Position numbers and translations under genes: made by a program
The notes under the pieces: generated by a model
Databases searched by the model: none
The model's input: the letters and a program-made list of their open reading frames with translations, nothing else
Told to the model about the DNA's origin: nothing
NCBI GenBank assembly: GCA_963719515.1
Contig: CAVRCJ010000010.1
Span: 832,001 to 896,000, forward strand
Direction of reading: 5' to 3'
DNA length: 64,000 nucleotides
Source: an uncultured cyanobacterium
GTDB lineage: Bacteria > Cyanobacteriota > Cyanobacteriia > CAKZMO01
Part shown: positions 15,047-24,557 of the stretch, piece by piece
Position numbering within the stretch: the first letter of the stretch is position 1
How the letters are laid out: each line of letters opens with the position of its first letter

Positions 15047-16126
15047 ATGAGCGCCTCTCTGCAAACCATCCTCTTCCTCGCCGCTAACCCCAAAGACACC
15101 GCCCGCCGCCGTCTGGACCAAGAGCTTCGCGACATCGACGAGGGCCTACAGCGCTCCAGGAACCGCGACCAGTTCACCCTAGAGAAAAAGCTGGCGGTGC
15201 GCCCTCGTGATATTCAGCGGGCCATGCTGGATGTGGGGCCGCAGATTGTTCACTTCTCGGGCCACAGCGACGGGGAAATGGGGCTGCAGTTTGAAGACGA
15301 GGTGGGCAACGCCAAGCTGGTGGACGGGGCGGCGCTGGCGAGGCTGTTTGCGCTGTTTGCCGATCAGGTGAGCTGCGTGGTGCTCAACGGCTGCTATTCC
15401 CAGGCGCAGGCCGAGGCGATCGCCCAGCATGTGCCCTACGTCATCGGTATGAGTAAGGACATCGACGAGGATGCGGCGATCGCCTTTGCGGTGGGCTTTT
15501 ATGACGCGTTGGGGGCGGGGCGGGATGTGGAGTTTGCCTATAAGCTGGGCTGCACCGCCATCAGTTTGGAGGGGGTGGAGGGATATCTGACGCCTATCCT
15601 GCTAAAGCACGCTCAGGAGGAAGTGACCGCTACGCCTATCCCCGCCGCTTCTAGTCCTGTGAACCATGAGGCGGACGGCTCCATTGAGGTTTTCATTTCC
15701 TATTCCCACAAAGATGATGCCTTACAAGAGGAGCTGATCGCCCATTTGTCTAGCCTGCGGCGGCGCGGAAATATCACCGCCTGGTATGACCGTGCTGTGG
15801 AGGCAGGAGCGGAGTGGGAAGCGCAGATTAAAGACAAGCTGGAAACGGCTCAGGTTATTCTGATGCTCATCAGTCCGGCTTTCATGGCGTCTGATTACTG
15901 CTACGACATCGAGATGCAGCGAGCGCTGGAACGCCACGAGGAGGGTACGGCGCGCGTAATTCCGGTTATTCTACGCCCCTGTGACTGGAGAGAGGCCCCG
16001 TTTAGCAAGCTAAAGGCGATGCCAGAAGACGGTAAACCCGTGACGCAGTGGGGCGATCGCGATACGGCGTTTTTGAATGTGGTGCAGGGCATTAAACGGG
16101 CACTGGAGTCGCTGACAAAAAAGTAG
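15047..16126 (+). CDS. CHAT (caspase-like) plus TIR domain protein
   Basis: CHAT part: ILFLAANP, IVHFSGH (His) and VVLNGC (Cys). TIR part: VFISYSHKD...SDYCYDIEM with the Glu retained. Ends LTKK*. Confidence 0.88.
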   Translation: MSASLQTILFLAANPKDTARRRLDQELRDIDEGLQRSRNRDQFTLEKKLAVRPRDIQRAMLDVGPQIVHFSGHSDGEMGLQFEDEVGNAKLVDGAALARLFALFADQVSCVVLNGCYSQAQAEAIAQHVPYVIGMSKDIDEDAAIAFAVGFYDALGAGRDVEFAYKLGCTAISLEGVEGYLTPILLKHAQEEVTATPIPAASSPVNHEADGSIEVFISYSHKDDALQEELIAHLSSLRRRGNITAWYDRAVEAGAEWEAQIKDKLETAQVILMLISPAFMASDYCYDIEMQRALERHEEGTARVIPVILRPCDWREAPFSKLKAMPEDGKPVTQWGDRDTAFLNVVQGIKRALESLTKK

Positions 16127-16162
16127 ACCGTTCTTTGCGTGCTGGTGCGGGAGCAAAGGACG
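16105..16162 (+). promoter_or_regulatory. Putative programmed -1 ribosomal frameshift signal
   Basis: GGAG (16105-16108), in-phase A_AAA_AAG (16117-16123), 5-nt spacer, then a 10-bp stem CGTTCTTTGC (16129-16138) / GCAAAGGACG (16153-16162). Confidence 0.75.
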
Positions 16163-17019
16163 ACGGGCTAACGTACCGGGGGGATGATTCGCCTTTTATT
16201 ACGGGGACGCCGATTTCTCATCCGCGCTATTTCTTTGGCCGACGCCGGGTCGTGAAACGGCTGTTTAACTTGCTGAAGACCCATCCGCTGCAGAATGCGG
16301 CCATTATTGGCCAGCGGCGCTCGGGAAAGACGTCGCTGCTGAACTATTTGCGCACCGTTACCACGACGCCTGCCGCAGCGCTGCGACCGGGGCAAAAGGC
16401 GGACTGGCTACCGCAGCCGGAGGCCTACCGCTGGATCTTCGTAGATTTCCAGGATGCGCGGCTGGCGCGGCGGGAGGGGCTGCTGCGGCATTTGCTAGAG
16501 GCGATGGAGTTAGCGGTGCCGGAGCCTTGTGACCTGGAGCGGTTTATGGAGCAGGTGAGCGGCTGCGTGACGCGGCCTACGGTGGTGTTGATGGATGAGA
16601 TTGGGGAGGCGCTGGGCACCTACTCGGAGCTGGATGATGAGTTTTGGAATAGCCTGCGATCGCTGGCGACAACGCAGACGGACGGAAATTTGGCCTTTGT
16701 GCTGGCGACGCCGGAGAGCCCGGTTGGCCTAGCGCGGCAGACGGGGCACAGCTCGCCGTTTTTCAATATCTTTGGCTACACGGCGACGCTGGGGCCGTTG
16801 AAAGAAGAGGAGGCGCGGGCGCTGATGGGGCGATCGCCCATTCCTTTTATGGAGGCGGATACGGTCTGGATGCTGGAGCAGAGCGGGGGCTGGCCGATTT
16901 TGCTGCAGATTTTGTGCCGGGAGCGGCTGTTTGCCCTGGAGGAGGGGGACGATAGCGAGGACTGGCGGCAGGAGGGGCTGGCGCAGATGCAGCCGTTTAC
17001 GCATTTGCTAAATGGCTAG
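16123..17019 (+). CDS. STAND-like AAA+ ATPase domain, probably made as a -1 frameshift fusion with CHAT-TIR
   Basis: SPFITGTP...FFGR, Walker A GQRRSGKT, Walker B VVLMDE and SGGWPILLQ. There is no ATG before Walker A; the TTG at 16135 has no RBS and lies inside the stem. Confidence 0.82.
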   Translation, partial: VDRSLRAGAGAKDDGLTYRGDDSPFITGTPISHPRYFFGRRRVVKRLFNLLKTHPLQNAAIIGQRRSGKTSLLNYLRTVTTTPAAALRPGQKADWLPQPEAYRWIFVDFQDARLARREGLLRHLLEAMELAVPEPCDLERFMEQVSGCVTRPTVVLMDEIGEALGTYSELDDEFWNSLRSLATTQTDGNLAFVLATPESPVGLARQTGHSSPFFNIFGYTATLGPLKEEEARALMGRSPIPFMEADTVWMLEQSGGWPILLQILCRERLFALEEGDDSEDWRQEGLAQMQPFTHLLNG

Positions 17020-17277: not shown

Positions 17278-17544
17278 ATGACCTATGATTCTTTTAATCC
17301 TCGCGATCGCGAGGGCGGTTCGTCCTGCCCGATTATTCTGCCGGGCGACGGCGACGATGTGCTGCGGCTCATCGCCATTGGCCCGCCCTATGCGGTAGAG
17401 AACTGCCGACTGGCACTGCATCGCTACGGGTTTGCGGAGGCGAATGATTGGTCGCAGCCGCTGCCGGGGGCGAGCCCGGAGACGATTCGGGTGGTGGACC
17501 CGCGCCACGTGATGCGGATTTTGACGAAGCGGGTGCGGCGATAA
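17278..17544 (+). CDS. Small hypothetical protein (88 aa)
   Basis: ATG preceded by AAAGGAGA; LHRYGFAEANDWSQPLP resembles a recurrent cyanobacterial small-protein family. Confidence 0.7.
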   Translation: MTYDSFNPRDREGGSSCPIILPGDGDDVLRLIAIGPPYAVENCRLALHRYGFAEANDWSQPLPGASPETIRVVDPRHVMRILTKRVRR

Positions 17545-17751
17545 AATGGAGCTTCGCAAGCGAACGTAGATAGGACTGGCTCGCGGGATTTTTGAAAATC
17601 CCACGAGTCGATCAAGGTATATTTGGTATTGTGGAGTCTCCAGATTATTTTGTGAGGTCCAAAAAATCGTGATGTCGGCCTACAATGATCTTGTGAGGTC
17701 TACGAATTACATAGGCTGACACAACCATTGGTATCTCTGAGGAATAGCGTC

Positions 17752-18126
17752 ATGACAGCTCACCTGTTGCCGAAACTTGATGCGTTGCCAAATAGCTTGC
17801 CCTTAGAAGGAGCAGTTCGAATTGAATTGGTGGAGGGCGTTCCAGTTTTTCGGGCATCTAGCCAAGTTCAGATTCGTATTGAAGCGCTCTTAGATAAGCA
17901 AAAGATTACGACTTTAGATTCAAATGAAGAGCAGGAATTAAGTTCTTACGAAGAGCTTGATGACTATTTGAGCCTAGTCAATCGGATCATCCGACAAGAA
18001 TTGCAATTAAAGCCATCAGTAACGGCTGCAGTTTCGCAAGATTTTCCATTGGCGGGCAGTATTTTATACTACGATGATCCATTCGGTCCTGCAGTTGACC
18101 CCGACGATTGGGGCGCTTTGCAATGA
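17752..18126 (+). CDS. Putative antitoxin
   Basis: Overlaps the downstream PIN toxin (ATGA); acidic tail YDDPFGPAVDPDDW. Confidence 0.65.
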   Translation: MTAHLLPKLDALPNSLPLEGAVRIELVEGVPVFRASSQVQIRIEALLDKQKITTLDSNEEQELSSYEELDDYLSLVNRIIRQELQLKPSVTAAVSQDFPLAGSILYYDDPFGPAVDPDDWGALQ

Positions 18127-18515
18127 TTGTTATCGATACCCACATTTGGCTTTGGTGGGTAGACAATAGTCCGAGATTGACTCAGCACCAGCGAAAATTG
18201 CTAGAAGACCACAGGGATCAGGGCTTGGGTGTAAGTATAATCTCATGCTGGGAAGTTGCAAAGTTAGTTGAGAAGCAGAAGATTGGCTTGGGGCGATCGC
18301 TAGAGGAGTGGATGGAGGTGGCATTGAGCTATCCCGGCATTCAGCTATTAGAGCTTACGATCCCCATTGCAGTTGAATCGACGAGACTCGTGGGATTTCA
18401 CCGCGACCCGGCAGACCAATTAATTGTAGCGACGGCTAAGGTTCATGATGTTCCGCTACTAACGGCTGATGCAAAGATTTTAAGCTACGAAGGTATCAAG
18501 CTTCTGGGAGTATAA
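18123..18515 (+). CDS. vapC: PIN-domain (VapC-like) toxin
   Basis: MIVIDTHIWLWW, SCWEVAKL, HRDPADQLIVATA and LLTAD. Confidence 0.9.
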   Translation: MIVIDTHIWLWWVDNSPRLTQHQRKLLEDHRDQGLGVSIISCWEVAKLVEKQKIGLGRSLEEWMEVALSYPGIQLLELTIPIAVESTRLVGFHRDPADQLIVATAKVHDVPLLTADAKILSYEGIKLLGV

Positions 18516-18700: not shown

Positions 18701-21065
18701 ATGACCCCACTCCAGCCTCCAAACAATGCCTACACTCACTCACCTGAGCAGCATCCTAATCTGATTCTAGGAAGCTTTCAGCTGCTTTTTTGGCTGGTTT
18801 TCTACCCTCGGCTTGGGAGAATCATATCCAGCGCCTCGACTCTTCCCTCAATAAGAACTTTCTCGCTACTGCGGCTATTTCGCCAGCAGCGATGGCATCG
18901 CGGGCAAATCTGGAAGTTTTTGATTCAAGGATTTGTTCTTTTACCCGTCTTTTTAAGTCTGTTGACAGGCGTCGTTTCCTTCAGCTTAGGGACGTCTTCT
19001 TGAAGAGTGGCGACGGCGGGCGTGGCGTGGCGTATGGCGTGACGTTGGCGTGGCGGTAGGCGTGGCGTTGGCGTGGCGGTAGGCGTGGCATATGGCGTGG
19101 CGTTCGGCGTGGCGGTTGGCGTGGCGTTGGCGTGTGCGTAGGCGTGATGGTAGGCGTGGCGTTAGGTGTGATGGGAGACGTGGCGTTGGCGTGGCGTTGG
19201 CGTGGCGGTAGGCGTGGCGTTCGGCGTGGCGTTGGCGTGGCGGAAGGCGTGGCGTAGGCGTGGCATTCGGCGTAGTGGTAGGCGTGGATGGGAGGCGTGG
19301 CGTGGCGGTGGTGGTGGATCGTGGCGGTAGGCGTAGCGGGAGGCGTAGCGGATGCACGGGGCTATGGGTGAACTGGTGGCGACCAGTTCTTATGTTCGCT
19401 GGACTCACTCCATGGCACATTCTTCTGTATCGCATCGATGAACTTCCGTGCTGGAAAATTTCCAAGCCTCCTTCCACCAGACACATCGCCTTCTGGGATG
19501 AATGGCAATATCTCCCCATCCCCGATCTCGACAAGCACCTCCTCCTAGTCCTCGAGCGCAGCCCCACAGAAGGCCAAGCCGCCCTCAACTACCTCAGCAG
19601 CACCCGCCAGCGCTGGGCCGCCGATTGCCGCCCAAATCGAACTCGACACCCGCCAGCTAGAGCGCTGCGACACCCCTCAAGAATATCGCCCAAATCCACA
19701 AAGCCCTCACCCTCAGCGATCTCAGCGGCCCCGCCAACCCCCTCTTCCGCAGCTTCAACCGCCTCAGCGAAGACACCGCCGCCGCCCTCAACCAAGCCAG
19801 CCCCTACAACCAGCGCCTTGCCCTCACCGCAGTCGCCGAAAAGCCTCGACGCCCTCATCCGCGAGCTCACCCGCAGCAGCGACAAATACGCCGTCCGCTT
19901 CCGCCCCATCGCCCAGCGCTGGAGCCGCATCATCGCCCTTCACATCCAAGACCTCACCCAAGCCGCCGAGCAGCGCCAAGAAATCGACTCCCCCTACATC
20001 ATCGGCGTCCCCCTCACCGAGCGTCAGGAAATCTTCGTCGGTCGCATCGATATCAGCGCCCGCATCGAGCAGCTCCTCCTCGATCGCCGCCGCCCGCCCC
20101 TATTGCTCTACGGCCAGCGCCGCACCGGCAAAACCTCCCTGCTCCACAACCTAGGCCGCCTGCTGCCCAACAGCGTCGTGCCTCTATTCGTCGACCTCCA
20201 AGGCCCCGCCTCCAGCGCCAGCGACCACGCCGGTTTTTTGTACAACCTAGCCCGTGGCATGGCCACCTCCGCCCAGCGCCAGCGCAGCCTCTCCCTCCCC
20301 CCTTTGAGCCGAGAGACCCTCACCGCCGACCCCTTCACCAGCTTCGACGAATGGCTCGACGCCGTAGAAGCCACACTACAGGGCAGCACCGCTCTGCTCA
20401 CCTTCGACGAATTCGAAGTACTCGACCAAGCCCTCACCACGGGCCGCTTCAGCGAGACCCTTGTACTCGGCATGCTCCGCAACCTCATCCAGCACCGCCC
20501 CCGCTTCAAAGTGCTTTTCGCAGGTTCTCACACCCTCGAAGAATTCCAGCGCTGGAGCAGCTACCTCATCAACGCCCAGACCCTGCACCTGGGCTACCTC
20601 AAAGATGACGAAACCCGCCAGCTAATCGAGCGGCCCTCCGCCGACCTCGCTCTCCGCTATCGGCCCGAGGCCTGCGATCGCGTCCTCGCCCTCACGAAGG
20701 GGCACCCCTTCCTGGTGCAGCTGCTCTGCGCCGAAATCGTGGTGCTCAAAAACGAGCAGGACCCCAGCGTCCGCCGGCTGGCCACCCTTAAAGACGTCAA
20801 CGCCGCCGTCCCCGAAGCCCTGAGCAGCGGCAGCATGTTTTTTAGCGACATTGAAGGGAACCAGCTCAGTGAGACTGCGACCAAACTGCTGCACTACATG
20901 GCCGCTCAAGGTGAAGGGGCGATCGCTAATCCTTCAGCGCTGGCTCAGCACTGCGACAACGCAGACTTCGCAGCAGCGATCGCCCTTTTACAGCAGCGAG
21001 AGCTAATCGACGCCGCCGAGGAGCGGGTATCAAATTCGAGTGGAGCTAATCCGGCGGTGGTTTGA
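18701..21065 (+). pseudogene. Membrane-repeat plus STAND-like AAA+ ATPase, interrupted by several frameshifts (pseudogene or assembly errors)
   Basis: Plausible coding sequence alternates between frames (LLFWLVF / PSAWENHIQRLD; QRWAA / QIELDTRQLE; terminal VELIRRWF out of frame). It has GGCGTG(GCG) repeats encoding GVA-like units, SPYIIGVP...FVGR, Walker A GQRRTGKT and Walker B LLTFDEFE. Confidence 0.75.
19010..19352. repeat. Degenerate GGCGTG/GGCGT microsatellite-like coding repeat
   Basis: About 340 bp of near-continuous GGCGT(G/T/A) units. Confidence 0.9.
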
Positions 21066-21150
21066 GCCGCGCTAGCGAGTCTGCGAGCTACTAGCGCACT
21101 ACATCAGCTCACAGACCTAGAATTAAAGGGAATTGCGCACCTCCCCACAC

Positions 21151-23451
21151 ATGAAATCCTCCCCTATAACGCAAGATCTAGTTTTGATTGGCGGCGGCCA
21201 TAGCCACGCGATCGTCCTCAAGCAGTTTGCAATGAACCCGGTACCGGGAGTGCGCCTCACCCTGATTACCAATGTCTCCCACACCCCCTACTCCGGGATG
21301 CTGCCGGGGTATGTGGCGGGCCTGTATACCTTTGACGAATGCCACATTGACCTATGGCCCCTATGCCACTCAGCGGGGGCAAGGCTAATTTTAGACCGGG
21401 CCTCCGGCTTAGATTTGAGCCACCAGCGGGTGCACTGCGCTCAGCATCCCCCCATCGCCTTTGACCTCCTCTCTATCGACATCGGCAGCACCCCCGCTAC
21501 CACGGGCATTGACGGCGCAGAGCACTTAATTCCGGTAAAGCCCATCTCGAAGTTTCTCACCCGCTGGGATGCCCTAGTGGAAAGTCTAATAGGGCAGCCG
21601 CGATCGCCTTTGGCCCTGGCCGTCGTGGGCGGCGGTGCGGGGGGCGTTGAGCTGGCGTTGGCGATAGAGGCCCGCTTCCGGCGGCTCAGTCAGCAGACTC
21701 AAAAAGCGAGGAATCTCGACATTCATCTGTTTCAGCGTGGGGACAAAATTCTGCCCAACCGTTCCCAAATGATGCGTCGCCAAGTCAAGCGACAGCTCCA
21801 GCAGCGCCGCATGATGCTGCACACCGGGCAGAAGGTGACCGCCATAAAGTCTTTTAAAGATTCTGGGTCTAGGCCAGAGGGCCACCCGCTCAGCGTCGTG
21901 ACCCAGCAAGATAAGCTCCCCTGTGACGCGGTGTTTTGGGTGACGGGGGCTTCGGCAGCGCCTTGGATCGCCACCTCGGGCCTTGAAACCGACGGGCAGG
22001 GCTTTATTGCCGTCAATTCCGCGCTCCAGTCCTCCCACCCCAGGGTGTTTGCCGCCGGAGATATCGCCACCCTGCTGGAGCACCCTCGCCCCAAGGCCGG
22101 CGTTTTCGCGGTGCGTCAGGGCCAGCCCCTCTACGACAACCTGCGGCGATCGCTTTTAGGCCAGCCGCTAAAGCCCTTCATCCCCCAAAAGCAGTTTTTA
22201 ATCTTGGTGGGAACGGGGGACGAGCGGGCGATCGCCTCGCGGGGACCGTTTGCTTTGGGGCCTTCCTCGCTGCTGTGGCGCTGGAAAGACCGCATCGACC
22301 GCAGGTTTATGGCGCAGTTTGCCCCCCAGGAGGCCAATGCTGCCGCCGATGCTGCGATGGCGTCACCCTCTAAGGGACAGGCCCCCATCATGTCCTGCGG
22401 CGGCTGCGGCGCAAAAGTAGGCAGTGCGGCCCTCAGCGCGGCGTTGACCCGAGTTCGTGTGGAATGCTCCGGCGTCATCCCCGCCGACGTGGTGCTAGGT
22501 CTAGAGGCCGCTGACGATGCAGCGGTGATACGCCCCCCGGCTGACCAGCTCTGGGTTCAAACCGTGGACTACTTCCCGGCGCTGATTGACGATCCTTTTG
22601 TGCTGGGACAAATTACGGCCCACCACTGCCTCAACGACCTGTGGGCCATGGGGGCCTCCCCCCACAGCGTACTGGCGATCGCCACGTTGCCCTACGCCAC
22701 CGCCGCCAAGCATGAAGAGCTGCTGTACCACCTGCTTTCCGGGCTAGTTAAGGTGCTGCATCAGGAGGGCGCGGCGCTGCTGGGGGGCCATACGATAGAA
22801 GGCGAAACGCTGGCCCTTGGCCTCACCTGCAACGGCACCGTCCCGCCCGAACGGCTGCTGCGGAAGTCCGGCCTTCAGGCGGGGCAGTCTCTGATTCTCA
22901 CGAAGGCTCTGGGCACCGGCACCCTATTTGCGGCGGCGCAGCAGCAGCGGGCCAAAGGGCGCTGGATTGAAGGGGCGATCGCCGCCATGCTGCGCAGCAA
23001 CGCCGCCGCTGCGGCCTGCCTGCAGAAATACGGAGCTGCGGCCTGCACCGATGTCACCGGATTTGGCCTACTGGGGCACCTGTTGGAAATGGTGTCGGCG
23101 ACCGCAGACGCAGACGCCCAGCCGGTGGGAGTTACCCTAATGTTGAATGCTCTACCGCTGCTAGAGGGCACAGCCGACACCCTCGCCCAGGGCATCTTTA
23201 GCTCCCTCCACCCTCAAAACCAGCAGGCCGAGATTCGCCTCCACAACCCTCAGCAGGCCCAGCTGCCGCACTATGCCGCGCTCTTCGACCCGCAGACCTC
23301 TGGCGGGCTGCTGGCGGCGGTCCCGCAGGAGAAGGCTGAGCCCTGCCTAGCGGCGCTGCAGGCTTTGGGCTATGACCACAGCGCCATCATTGGCACCATA
23401 GACTCGCTGGGAGATCTTACCCCGGACAAACCCGTTAGGATTGAGGGGTAA
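21151..23451 (+). CDS. selD: Selenide, water dikinase fused to an N-terminal FAD-dependent oxidoreductase domain
   Basis: N-terminal LVLIGGGHSH; SelD part CGGCGAKVG, DDAAV, QTVDYF, GGHT, TDVTGFGLLGHL and DPQTSGGLL. Confidence 0.92.
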   Translation: MKSSPITQDLVLIGGGHSHAIVLKQFAMNPVPGVRLTLITNVSHTPYSGMLPGYVAGLYTFDECHIDLWPLCHSAGARLILDRASGLDLSHQRVHCAQHPPIAFDLLSIDIGSTPATTGIDGAEHLIPVKPISKFLTRWDALVESLIGQPRSPLALAVVGGGAGGVELALAIEARFRRLSQQTQKARNLDIHLFQRGDKILPNRSQMMRRQVKRQLQQRRMMLHTGQKVTAIKSFKDSGSRPEGHPLSVVTQQDKLPCDAVFWVTGASAAPWIATSGLETDGQGFIAVNSALQSSHPRVFAAGDIATLLEHPRPKAGVFAVRQGQPLYDNLRRSLLGQPLKPFIPQKQFLILVGTGDERAIASRGPFALGPSSLLWRWKDRIDRRFMAQFAPQEANAAADAAMASPSKGQAPIMSCGGCGAKVGSAALSAALTRVRVECSGVIPADVVLGLEAADDAAVIRPPADQLWVQTVDYFPALIDDPFVLGQITAHHCLNDLWAMGASPHSVLAIATLPYATAAKHEELLYHLLSGLVKVLHQEGAALLGGHTIEGETLALGLTCNGTVPPERLLRKSGLQAGQSLILTKALGTGTLFAAAQQQRAKGRWIEGAIAAMLRSNAAAAACLQKYGAAACTDVTGFGLLGHLLEMVSATADADAQPVGVTLMLNALPLLEGTADTLAQGIFSSLHPQNQQAEIRLHNPQQAQLPHYAALFDPQTSGGLLAAVPQEKAEPCLAALQALGYDHSAIIGTIDSLGDLTPDKPVRIEG

Positions 23452-23453
23452 CG

Positions 23454-24557
23454 TTGCCCCAATTTGTAGCCTCTTTCATGCTCACCGTTGAAGAGTTTTT
23501 GCAGCGCCCTGGCCCCATCCTCGACGTGCGTAGCCCAGCCGAGTTTGCCCAAGGCCACCTCCCTGAATCGCGATCGCTTCCCCTATTCGACGATGACGAG
23601 CGGGCCCAAGTGGGCACCTGCTATAAGCAGCAGGGGCGGGATGCGGCAGTGGAGCTGGGGCTAGAGCTGGTGGGGCCAAAGCTGGTAACCTTCGCGCGTC
23701 AGGCTAAGGCTTGGGCCAGTGAGGAGGCCAATCAGGGGGCCAATCAGGGGGCCAGCCAGGAGGGCGGCCAAGTGCGGGTCCACTGCTGGCGGGGCGGCAT
23801 GCGCAGCAGCAGCATGGCCTGGCTGCTGGAGACGTCCGGCCTGTCGGCAACGGTGCTCAAAGGGGGGTATAAAGCCTTTCGCCACTGGGTGCGCCAAACC
23901 CTCAGCATTTCAAAGCCTATTTTTAGCCTGGGCGGCATGACCGGCACCGGCAAAACCTTAGTGCTGACGGCGCTAGCGGCGCAGGGAGAGCAGGTGCTGG
24001 ATTTGGAAGGGCTGGCCCACCATCGCGGCAGCAGCTACGGCAATCTCTGCCTCCCCCCCCAGCCCACCAACGAGCAGTTTGAGAACCGAGTAGCGGCAGC
24101 CTGGCAAGGGTTCGATCCCCAGCGACCGGTGTGGATTGAGGCAGAAAGCCGCCGCATTGGCGCCTGCCGCGTGCCGGATGAGCTGTTCGCTCAGATGATG
24201 CAGGCTCCGGTGGTGCAGATTGGGCGATCGCCCGCCGAACGGATCGCGCTTTTGGCCGATGAGTATGGCGACGCCGATTCCTCAGAGCTGGTGGCCGCAA
24301 CGGAGCGTATTCGCAAGCGACTGGGGGGGCTGCGCACCCAGCAGGCGATCGACGCCATTCACGAGGGGGATTTGCAGCAGGCGATCGCCCTCGTGCTCTC
24401 CTACTATGACAAGACCTATCGCTACGATCTAGAGCAGCGATGCGCCCCTATTCAAGTTGTAGAGGTCACTGGACTGAGCGCCGAGCAGGCCGCTACCCGG
24501 CTGCGGCAGATTGTCCATCCAGACGCAGCAAGCCGTTTATGCAGCGCCAATTTCTGA
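23454..24557 (+). CDS. selU: tRNA 2-selenouridine synthase
   Basis: Rhodanese DVRSPAEF...CWRGGMRS, P-loop GMTGTGKT and DLEGLAHHRGS. Confidence 0.92.
   Translation: MPQFVASFMLTVEEFLQRPGPILDVRSPAEFAQGHLPESRSLPLFDDDERAQVGTCYKQQGRDAAVELGLELVGPKLVTFARQAKAWASEEANQGANQGASQEGGQVRVHCWRGGMRSSSMAWLLETSGLSATVLKGGYKAFRHWVRQTLSISKPIFSLGGMTGTGKTLVLTALAAQGEQVLDLEGLAHHRGSSYGNLCLPPQPTNEQFENRVAAAWQGFDPQRPVWIEAESRRIGACRVPDELFAQMMQAPVVQIGRSPAERIALLADEYGDADSSELVAATERIRKRLGGLRTQQAIDAIHEGDLQQAIALVLSYYDKTYRYDLEQRCAPIQVVEVTGLSAEQAATRLRQIVHPDAASRLCSANF

Follow-up and report, generated by a model that had tools for sequence, protein, structure and literature searches.

How is an ATPase translated whose reading frame overlaps the end of the preceding gene and offers no ATG between its opening and the Walker A motif? 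This question is raised by a locus in a 64,000-nucleotide (nt) stretch of DNA from an uncultured cyanobacterium (contig CAVRCJ010000010.1, positions 832,001 to 896,000; hereafter the window), where an open reading frame (ORF) for a CHAT-TIR effector ends in ACA AAA AAG TAG and a STAND-type P-loop ATPase continues in the −1 frame. A first-pass annotation of the window had proposed that a programmed frameshift joins the two. From the comparison of homologous loci we find it very likely that the junction works by programmed −1 ribosomal frameshifting of the dnaX/IS3 kind, with tandem tRNA-Lys slippage, the help of a 3' structure, and two products. The recoding mechanism is a known one, here in a variant form and in a class of genes for which we found no report of it, and it is broader than the first-pass annotation held: judging from the sequences, the signal is a portable junction with many partners and both polarities, and is not special to the CHAT-TIR/ATPase pair. 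The elements of the junction are as follows.

15047..16126, plus strand: CHAT-TIR ORF, zero-frame product of 359 amino acids (aa); start ATG at 15047; PF12770 at residues 25–161, PF13676 at residues 215–319
16093..16095, plus strand: TAA shutting the −1 frame, which caps the shift window at 9 codons
16105..16108, plus strand: GGAG, possible internal Shine-Dalgarno (SD) sequence 8 nt 5' of the heptamer; variable among homologues
16117..16123, plus strand: slippery heptamer A_AAA_AAG, in slippage phase
16124..16126, plus strand: zero-frame stop codon TAG, immediately 3' of the heptamer
16129..16162, plus strand: stem 1 of the 3' stimulator (16129–16138 with 16153–16162), covarying in homologues
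16144..16177, plus strand: candidate pseudoknot stem 2 (loop bases 16144–16148 with 16173–16177)
16123..17019, plus strand: P-loop ATPase of STAND type, encoded by 298 codons of the −1 frame; Walker A motif at 16309–16332, no repeat sensor

All coordinates and spacings in the first-pass annotation for the TAA, GGAG, heptamer, TAG and stem were reproduced, including the 10-bp stem with its one G-U pair, which begins 5 nt past the heptamer. The absence of an ATG upstream of Walker A holds in the window, and the product sizes, predicted as 359 and about 657 aa, were recomputed as 359 aa and, with the 298 codons in the −1 frame, 657 aa. The majority of ribosomes would terminate at the TAG and release free CHAT-TIR. 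A minority would pause at the stem or pseudoknot, the two tRNA-Lys(UUU) would slip back by one base, and the 657-aa CHAT-TIR-ATPase would be made.

The junction is not an assembly error, because contigs of two runs match it without gaps and all 21 TIR-ATPase homologues with the heptamer keep the −1 phase. Contigs X1 record 3 (15629–16311) and X4 record 26 (16077–16227) have no other letters and no gaps at the junction; this check used assembled contigs from two runs of one study, at a depth below 5. No row has an insertion or deletion within the A run, and the run at 16117–16122, whose length had been marked for verification, is six A in the matching contigs with no extra A. Among the ORFs of at least 100 codons in this genome, a perfect helix of at least 8 bp at the matching distance follows 1 of 75 in-frame A_AAA_AAG sites, namely that of this locus. 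The parts of the junction are weak singly and rare in combination. None of the 13 other TIR or CHAT matches read out in the same genome ends in a heptamer site.

Homologues of the ATPase were searched in 41, 401 and 17 genomes and in metagenome contigs. Most carry an in-frame front domain: a CHAT domain, a coiled coil, a kinase, a BTAD, a distant TIR or a unit that we take to be helix-turn-helix-like. Where a TIR of the window type lies upstream, the TIR ORF ends in A_AAA_AAR and the ATPase is in the −1 frame. The path from the heptamer to the ATPase core is open in the −1 frame only in 21 of 21 such loci, the zero frame always being stopped, and the linkers have eight different lengths, between 25 and 51 codons. 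The stop is shifted by at least one codon with the heptamer unmoved in L062, L076 and L117, and the heptamer is likewise retained after a move of the stop in L148 and L152. Homologues share no common ATPase start codon, and in two of them, L007 and L244, the stretch ahead of Walker A is free of ATG, GTG and TTG. The conservation that the first-pass annotation called for, of heptamer, −1 phase and stem, was found. Both parts are under purifying selection, with ratios of nonsynonymous to synonymous substitution rates of 0.07–0.19 for the ATPase (seven pairs) and 0.07–0.24 for the TIR (five pairs). Natural in-frame equivalents of the fusion exist as well (P0003, P0005 and P0006; 652–670 aa). One in-frame TIR-ATPase, L068, has neither heptamer nor stop nor stem; its sister is the shifted L117 (support of 95 in the SH-like approximate likelihood ratio test). 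The identical junction type occurs in dozens of assemblies, including two complete plasmid records; RefSeq splits both plasmid copies of Acaryochloris marina MBIC11017 (NC_009932.1 and NC_009933.1) into two genes, one for a TIR protein and one, beginning 150 nt downstream, for a TPR protein. In another homologous locus, L059, a −1 overlap follows a CHAT ORF and the heptamer is missing at its stop.

A second test was anchored on the TIR alone. It covered 401 and 121 genomes, and 157 distinct loci were examined among the matches listed (150 of 231 in the first search, 46 in the second); since the best-ranked matches were taken, this sample favours the TIR clade of the window. In 70 of the 157 loci the ORF ends where the TIR domain ends. 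Counting as long any −1 ORF of at least 150 codons, or of at least 70 codons running to the end of the locus, 19 of the 24 heptamer-ended TIR ORFs are followed by a long −1 ORF and none by a +1 ORF. Among the 43 motif-less TIR ORFs stopping at the domain end, there is no −1 ORF and one +1 ORF. Three further TIR ORFs carry a C_CCU motif at their end, each of them with a −1 ORF. The Fisher value for the association of heptamer and −1 ORF is 2e-12, which overstates it because kin are not independent. Scanning 185,579 genomes for the junction pattern yielded 37 matches. Eleven are cyanobacterial, all of these are TIR ends, and nine have a −1 ORF of more than 150 codons; a TIR is found in none of the 26 other matches. 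Every TIR-ending pattern match in named genomes was cyanobacterial.

Of 47 loci, 44 have A6G as the heptamer and 3 have A7, a count that omits three stemless heptamer loci and includes five members found by the pattern itself. Seven different codons precede the lysine pair, every one ending in A (GCA 26, ACA 8, TCA 8, CCA 2, and GGA, CTA and TTA once each). Lys-Lys pairs near TIR ends are written A_AAA_AAR in 50 of 55 cases, compared with 62 of 1032 in the long ORFs of this genome, and each of the 45 A6G runs located there is in slip phase. ARAGORN, run with and without introns, found a single tRNA-Lys with anticodon UUU and no CUU isoacceptor in this draft genome, which may miss a tRNA. Sections of PMC4066793 place A_AAA_AAG in the top three motifs in Escherichia coli and C_CCU in a group of six active tetramers. 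GGAG or GAGG lies within 22 nt upstream in 35 of the 47 loci, as opposed to 24 of 121 controls; the usual distance is 8 or 11 nt, and the motif comes from Val-Glu codons and from kinship.

On the 3' side, homologue stems begin 5–6 nt past the heptamer. Over 39 rows, 81.6% of the stem cells are paired, with 59 double changes versus 22 ± 5 in shuffles (none of 500 reached this number), and slid controls pair at 40–50%. In the 30 rows of equal register, an alignment that leaves out nine rows, 90% of the cells are paired, double changes occur at nine of the ten pairs and slid controls give 37–47%; as the structure was derived from the same sequences, the covariation test is biased in the stem's favour. 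RNAalifold predicted eight of the stem's pairs unaided, all with double changes, on 34 rows (the 39 minus five of shifted register). A perfect helix of at least 8 bp is present in 38 of 50 heptamer loci versus 5 of 124 other TIR ends, all rows being kept. The loop of the stem pairs with a segment 8–12 nt beyond it; four core pairs form in 23–27 of the 30 rows, with double changes at two of the four. The best loop-tail helix scores 12.6, compared with 10.9 for shuffled tails, and stem 2 of the window (shuffle p 0.02) is displaced by one column from the consensus register. As the loop-tail pairing suggests, the 3' stimulator is probably an H-type pseudoknot with a short second stem. The 10-bp stem of the first-pass annotation and its conservation have held, and its plain hairpin probably gives way to this pseudoknot. 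A covariance model searched against 150 genomes returned nine strong matches, all training loci, and the 21 weak matches examined have no long upstream ORF. The model is too specific and therefore missed the non-TIR cases, which were found by protein search.

Several observations weigh against a programmed frameshift. Part of the signal is shared ancestry, since 44 of the 49 cassette rows (a cassette being a junction with the genes it joins) fall inside one 59-row clade of a tree of 173 TIRs, built by a quick method; five lie outside, and the cassette label needs 12 changes. No long −1 ORF follows five of the 24 heptamer-ended TIR ORFs: L132 retains an ATPase remnant with a stop after 35 codons, L155 and L163 have no long ORF and a degraded stem, L309 is AT-rich and its stem is missing, and the fifth is L142, for which we considered a flip of polarity that an additional one-base insertion ruled out. 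At 45 occurrences against 35 expected, in-frame A_AAA_AAG shows no depletion in this genome. The fold z-score of the window hairpin is −1.6 to −2.2 in short folds and +0.3 at 117 nt; single-locus z-scores average −1.9 and are below −2 in just 17 of 39 loci. RNAalifold predicted no pairs on the gappy 39-row alignment. Stem 2 is weaker than stem 1, with 68% of cells paired over six pairs and 5 of 50 loci singly at p < 0.05. Finally, GGAG or GAGG is missing within 22 nt in 12 of the 47 loci, and its spacing in the window is only 8 nt; sections of PMC5009743 give 9–14 nt for internal SD sequences in −1 shifts. The upstream GGAG is there as first described, but its role as a dnaX-like stimulator is weaker than was claimed, and the SD is the variable and least secure element of the signal.

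The same facts can be read in other ways. If the two ORFs were translationally coupled genes, ribosomes would stop at the TAG and restart at a nearby TTG or GTG of the ATPase, and the stem would govern restart or mRNA stability. A TTG at 16135, a codon that is also TTG in five of the eight closest loci, and the two-gene annotation of the Acaryochloris marina copies speak for this. We nevertheless regard it as improbable: the TTG is buried in stem 1 and not kept elsewhere, L007 and L244 offer no ATG, GTG or TTG ahead of Walker A, and coupling would require neither A_AAA_AAG nor a fixed −1 phase nor an open linker. Moreover, in-frame loci retain a mid-ORF heptamer and stem where restart is unnecessary, and TIR-less family members mostly have a fused N-terminal domain. 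Slippage of RNA polymerase on the A run, adding one A and bringing some mRNAs in frame, would yield the same fusion, and three of the 47 loci do have seven A. The remaining 44 have just six A and a G, whereas sections of PMC5009743 describe bacterial transcript slippage for runs of nine; loci with C_CCU share stem and phase without a long run; and a gene with a run of nine to ten A in this genome (L344, below) has both phases and no fixed stem among its relatives, as slippage would predict and unlike the cassette. Polymerase slippage is accordingly quite improbable at this junction.

Could the stem instead be an RNA element unrelated to decoding, such as an antisense terminator or a processing or stability element, and the −1 phase a legacy of one ancestor? 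A T run does follow the stem when the minus strand is read, and the cassette is clustered on the TIR tree. A terminator scan makes no call, however, the loop measuring 14–17 nt and the gap between stem and run 5–6 nt, and the −1 phase survives several partner swaps and eight linker lengths, which makes this explanation very improbable. We give hardly any credence to a homopolymer error or a pseudogene, under which the true gene would be a plain fusion. Other genes in the assembly are broken, including the neighbouring partner gene, and in-frame fusions do exist; against this stand the match of independent contigs, the recurrence of the junction in dozens of assemblies and purifying selection on both parts.

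A programmed −1 frameshift is thus the reading that we retain, and its partners are diverse. Those in the −1 frame form nine sequence clusters: the window-type ATPase, NB-ARC-TPR, a second STAND type (two clusters), an nSTAND1-like ATPase, NACHT, NB-ARC with APAF-1 domains, an unnamed protein and CHASE2. Cassette loci span 11 family handles (f1, f3, f5, f7, f9, f14, f16, f17, f18, f30 and f55). Seven loci have the reverse polarity (L137, L140, L147, L149, L151, L161 and L162). In these, the TIR and STAND parts share one frame, the heptamer persists mid-ORF, the stem folds in six of the seven and the −1 frame stops 1–7 codons later, so that they are candidates for a truncation of dnaX polarity. 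Their STAND family also occurs in shifted form (L145). A second motif, A_AAC_CCU or C_CCU, is found in L156, L168, L228, L418 and L443, with the stem at the same position and −1 NTPase partners; a pattern search for it in six genomes, a sample too small to be informative, gave nothing. When 70 of 214 matches from a search on the NB-ARC side were examined, seven loci had an overlapping −1 ORF lacking its own ATG, all with a motif and a helix of 8–13 bp. Four of these seven have fronts other than TIR: a CHAT protein ending in A_AAC_CCU, two helical domains of 162–165 aa with A_AAA_AAG, and a 145-aa domain with C_CCU and no Pfam match, which presumably resembles part of an alpha/beta hydrolase. 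The NB-ARC matches also include ORFs that open just 13–17 codons before the domain, without an ATG and without a long overlapping upstream ORF (L408, L421, L423, L424, L430, L431, L434, L441, L455, L464 and L467).

Both products are likely to be enzymes, as their motifs predict, since the TIR glutamate is present in 47 of 47 motif loci and the CHAT histidine and cysteine motifs in 20 of 22. In the window, CHAT His73 and Cys116 and TIR Glu289, read off the sequence, are all present; we take them to be the catalytic residues. The best PDB matches of CHAT-TIR are the CHAT protein 8tl0 (seven chains; E value 9e-13) and the Cat1 TIR filament 9mud (E value 9e-7). These nearest solved relatives, both filament-forming effectors, are presumably switched by nucleotide-sensing domains, and no such domain is fused in CHAT-TIR. 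Walker A and Walker B of the ATPase are invariant or nearly so in 85 sequences. A structural model of the ATPase (predicted local distance difference test score, pLDDT, 83.6) has an AAA+/STAND-like fold with a helical domain, and its top Foldseek matches are the archaeal ATPases 2qen and 2fna (TM 0.52–0.56), with Orc1/Cdc6 and the nucleotide-binding leucine-rich repeat proteins (NLRs) of plants close behind. Searching PDB sequences with the ATPase turned up nothing of use, and no PADLOC or NCBIfam model matches it. The window ATPase terminates after the helical domain without a C-terminal repeat sensor, whereas other cassette partners bear TPR or APAF-1-type regions. A single-chain NLR (effector, NTPase, repeat sensor) was rejected for this locus on this ground. 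Thoeris, with a TIR protein ThsB next to ThsA, was rejected too: the TIR matches the ThsB model PDLC00420 (2e-60), yet none of seven neighbouring window proteins matches any PADLOC model.

A second ATPase gene, with a hydrophobic repeat region, is adjacent in 21 of the 25 ATPase loci having enough flank. In the window it corresponds to the following feature.

18707..21065, plus strand: partner gene, coding for a hydrophobic repeat region and for another ATPase of STAND type; broken up over several frames in this assembly

Compared with an intact 709-aa orthologue, the window copy is in at least five frame pieces, which reflects either decay or a fault in assembling repeat-rich DNA; the pathway at this locus may thus be dead, or only mis-assembled. 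A model of the complex between the ATPase and the partner, with both ATPase domains, scored 0.60 (best control 0.01), the runs agreeing in at least 84% of contacts and the partner pLDDT being at least 85; in the calibration, 18 of 157 solved complexes pass at scores of 0.60 or below, as do both of the passing mismatches (2 of 215). The model weakly supports an interaction. Between the ATPase and the partner, window 17278–18515 holds an 88-aa unnamed ORF and two small ORFs, the second of which is PIN/VapC-like by eye; these inserts differ among homologous loci. Downstream of the locus, at 21133–24557, lie an oxidoreductase/SelD-related fusion and the tRNA 2-selenouridine synthase MnmH. MnmH modifies the wobble base of tRNA-Lys, the very tRNA whose slippage is proposed here. 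A link to these neighbours was considered and dropped, as they are absent from the ORFs listed around six homologous loci.

From their domain content, the cassette genes presumably have an immune role. The two products may be made in a fixed ratio, as first proposed. In a two-gene STAND pair the fusion would act as receiver and the membrane-type ATPase next to it as its switch, and the signal would move with the 3' end of the effector and be re-attached to many sensor bodies. Oligomers of the ATPase might seed the assembly of the more abundant free protease/TIR units, an idea made plausible by the seven-chain CHAT structure and the Cat1 TIR filament among the closest solved effector relatives; by this analogy it is a serious possibility, though short of probable. 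Somewhat more tentatively, a portable, pseudoknot-stimulated −1 module of either polarity, placed between effector and NTPase in cyanobacterial STAND/NLR-like genes, could set the ratio of free to tethered effector, the tethered minority seeding CHAT/TIR filaments, so that one gene would provide both receptor and amplifier.

Known recoding systems share much of this design. Like the E. coli dnaX and IS3 signals described in sections of PMC4066793 and PMC5009743, the cassette combines A_AAA_AAG, a 3' structure 5–8 nt downstream, a single tRNA-Lys(UUU) and a common N-terminus. It differs in belonging to cyanobacterial immune-type effector-NTPase genes, in its many partners, its inconstant SD and its pseudoknot-like stimulator. 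The architecture first proposed stands for heptamer, stop, stem and conserved frames; the SD at 8 nt is its weakest part, and a pseudoknot probably takes the place of the plain hairpin. Both polarities occur among dnaX genes, as sections of PMC5009743 report; the reversed-polarity cassettes have that of E. coli dnaX. The chromosomal −1 shifts of copA and csoS2, covered in the same source, also concern non-mobile genes with a short and a long product. Unlike the cassette, they are single gene families with a metabolic or structural role; the short product of the cassette is a predicted enzyme effector. To our knowledge, few non-mobile bacterial genes use −1 frameshifting.

In gene layout, with two adjacent STAND ATPase genes, the locus resembles the Npun2340/2341 pair. 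Swappable TIR, caspase-like, kinase, EAD and other fronts are shared with the STAND conflict systems (the Npun2340/2341 family of the MNS clade, and nSTAND1) in sections of PMC8195603. The word "frameshift" does not occur in the main text of PMC8195603. An analogy may be drawn with the plant TIR-NLR genes N and RPS4, for which sections of PMC4100160 describe a truncated and a full receptor from one locus, in a ratio that matters for resistance. Unlike the cassette, these genes use splicing and not recoding, and, in the same sections, their short forms retain more than the TIR. In the titles and abstract openings searched, we found no report of frameshifting in TIR or STAND genes, although a GeneTack cluster may hold one. 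Term look-ups in sections of PMC3711429, PMC5009743, PMC7159879, PMC8195603 and two bioRxiv papers on bacterial NLR/STAND proteins returned none, nor did two supplement files of PMC3711429.

If the frameshift is real, some cyanobacterial annotations of "TIR-only" or "orphan NTPase" genes would be halves of one receptor, and domain surveys and cloning for defence screens would therefore miss the active form. One synonymous change in the heptamer, or a change in the stem, would alter the ratio of the products without altering either protein. The cassette would thus allow one to test directly whether STAND signalling is controlled by the stoichiometry of effector to receptor, with natural in-frame, shifted and reversed-polarity versions for comparison.

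The genome of the window contains other frame changes. Near 779 of contig C6 and near 68257 of contig C16 (G000, minus strand), two copies of an element have a seven-A site that joins ORFs in −1; they presumably resemble IS630-type transposases. The TIR match at 154276–153887 of contig C1 (G000, minus strand) belongs to a TIR-WD40 type gene whose repeats resume in +1 after a stop, probably a break or an assembly error. On the minus strand of contig C14 (G000, 68012–72273; L344), an 882-codon acidic frame ends in ten A, G and TAG, and a 537-codon Hsp70/actin-like ORF (Pfam HSP70, E value 0.002) then continues in −1. Relatives of this gene have a run of nine to ten A at the end of the upstream ORF in 18 of 25 cases, with the −1 phase in 14, the +1 phase in 4 and no fixed stem. 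L344 is probably a second conserved recoding site, acting by transcriptional slippage.

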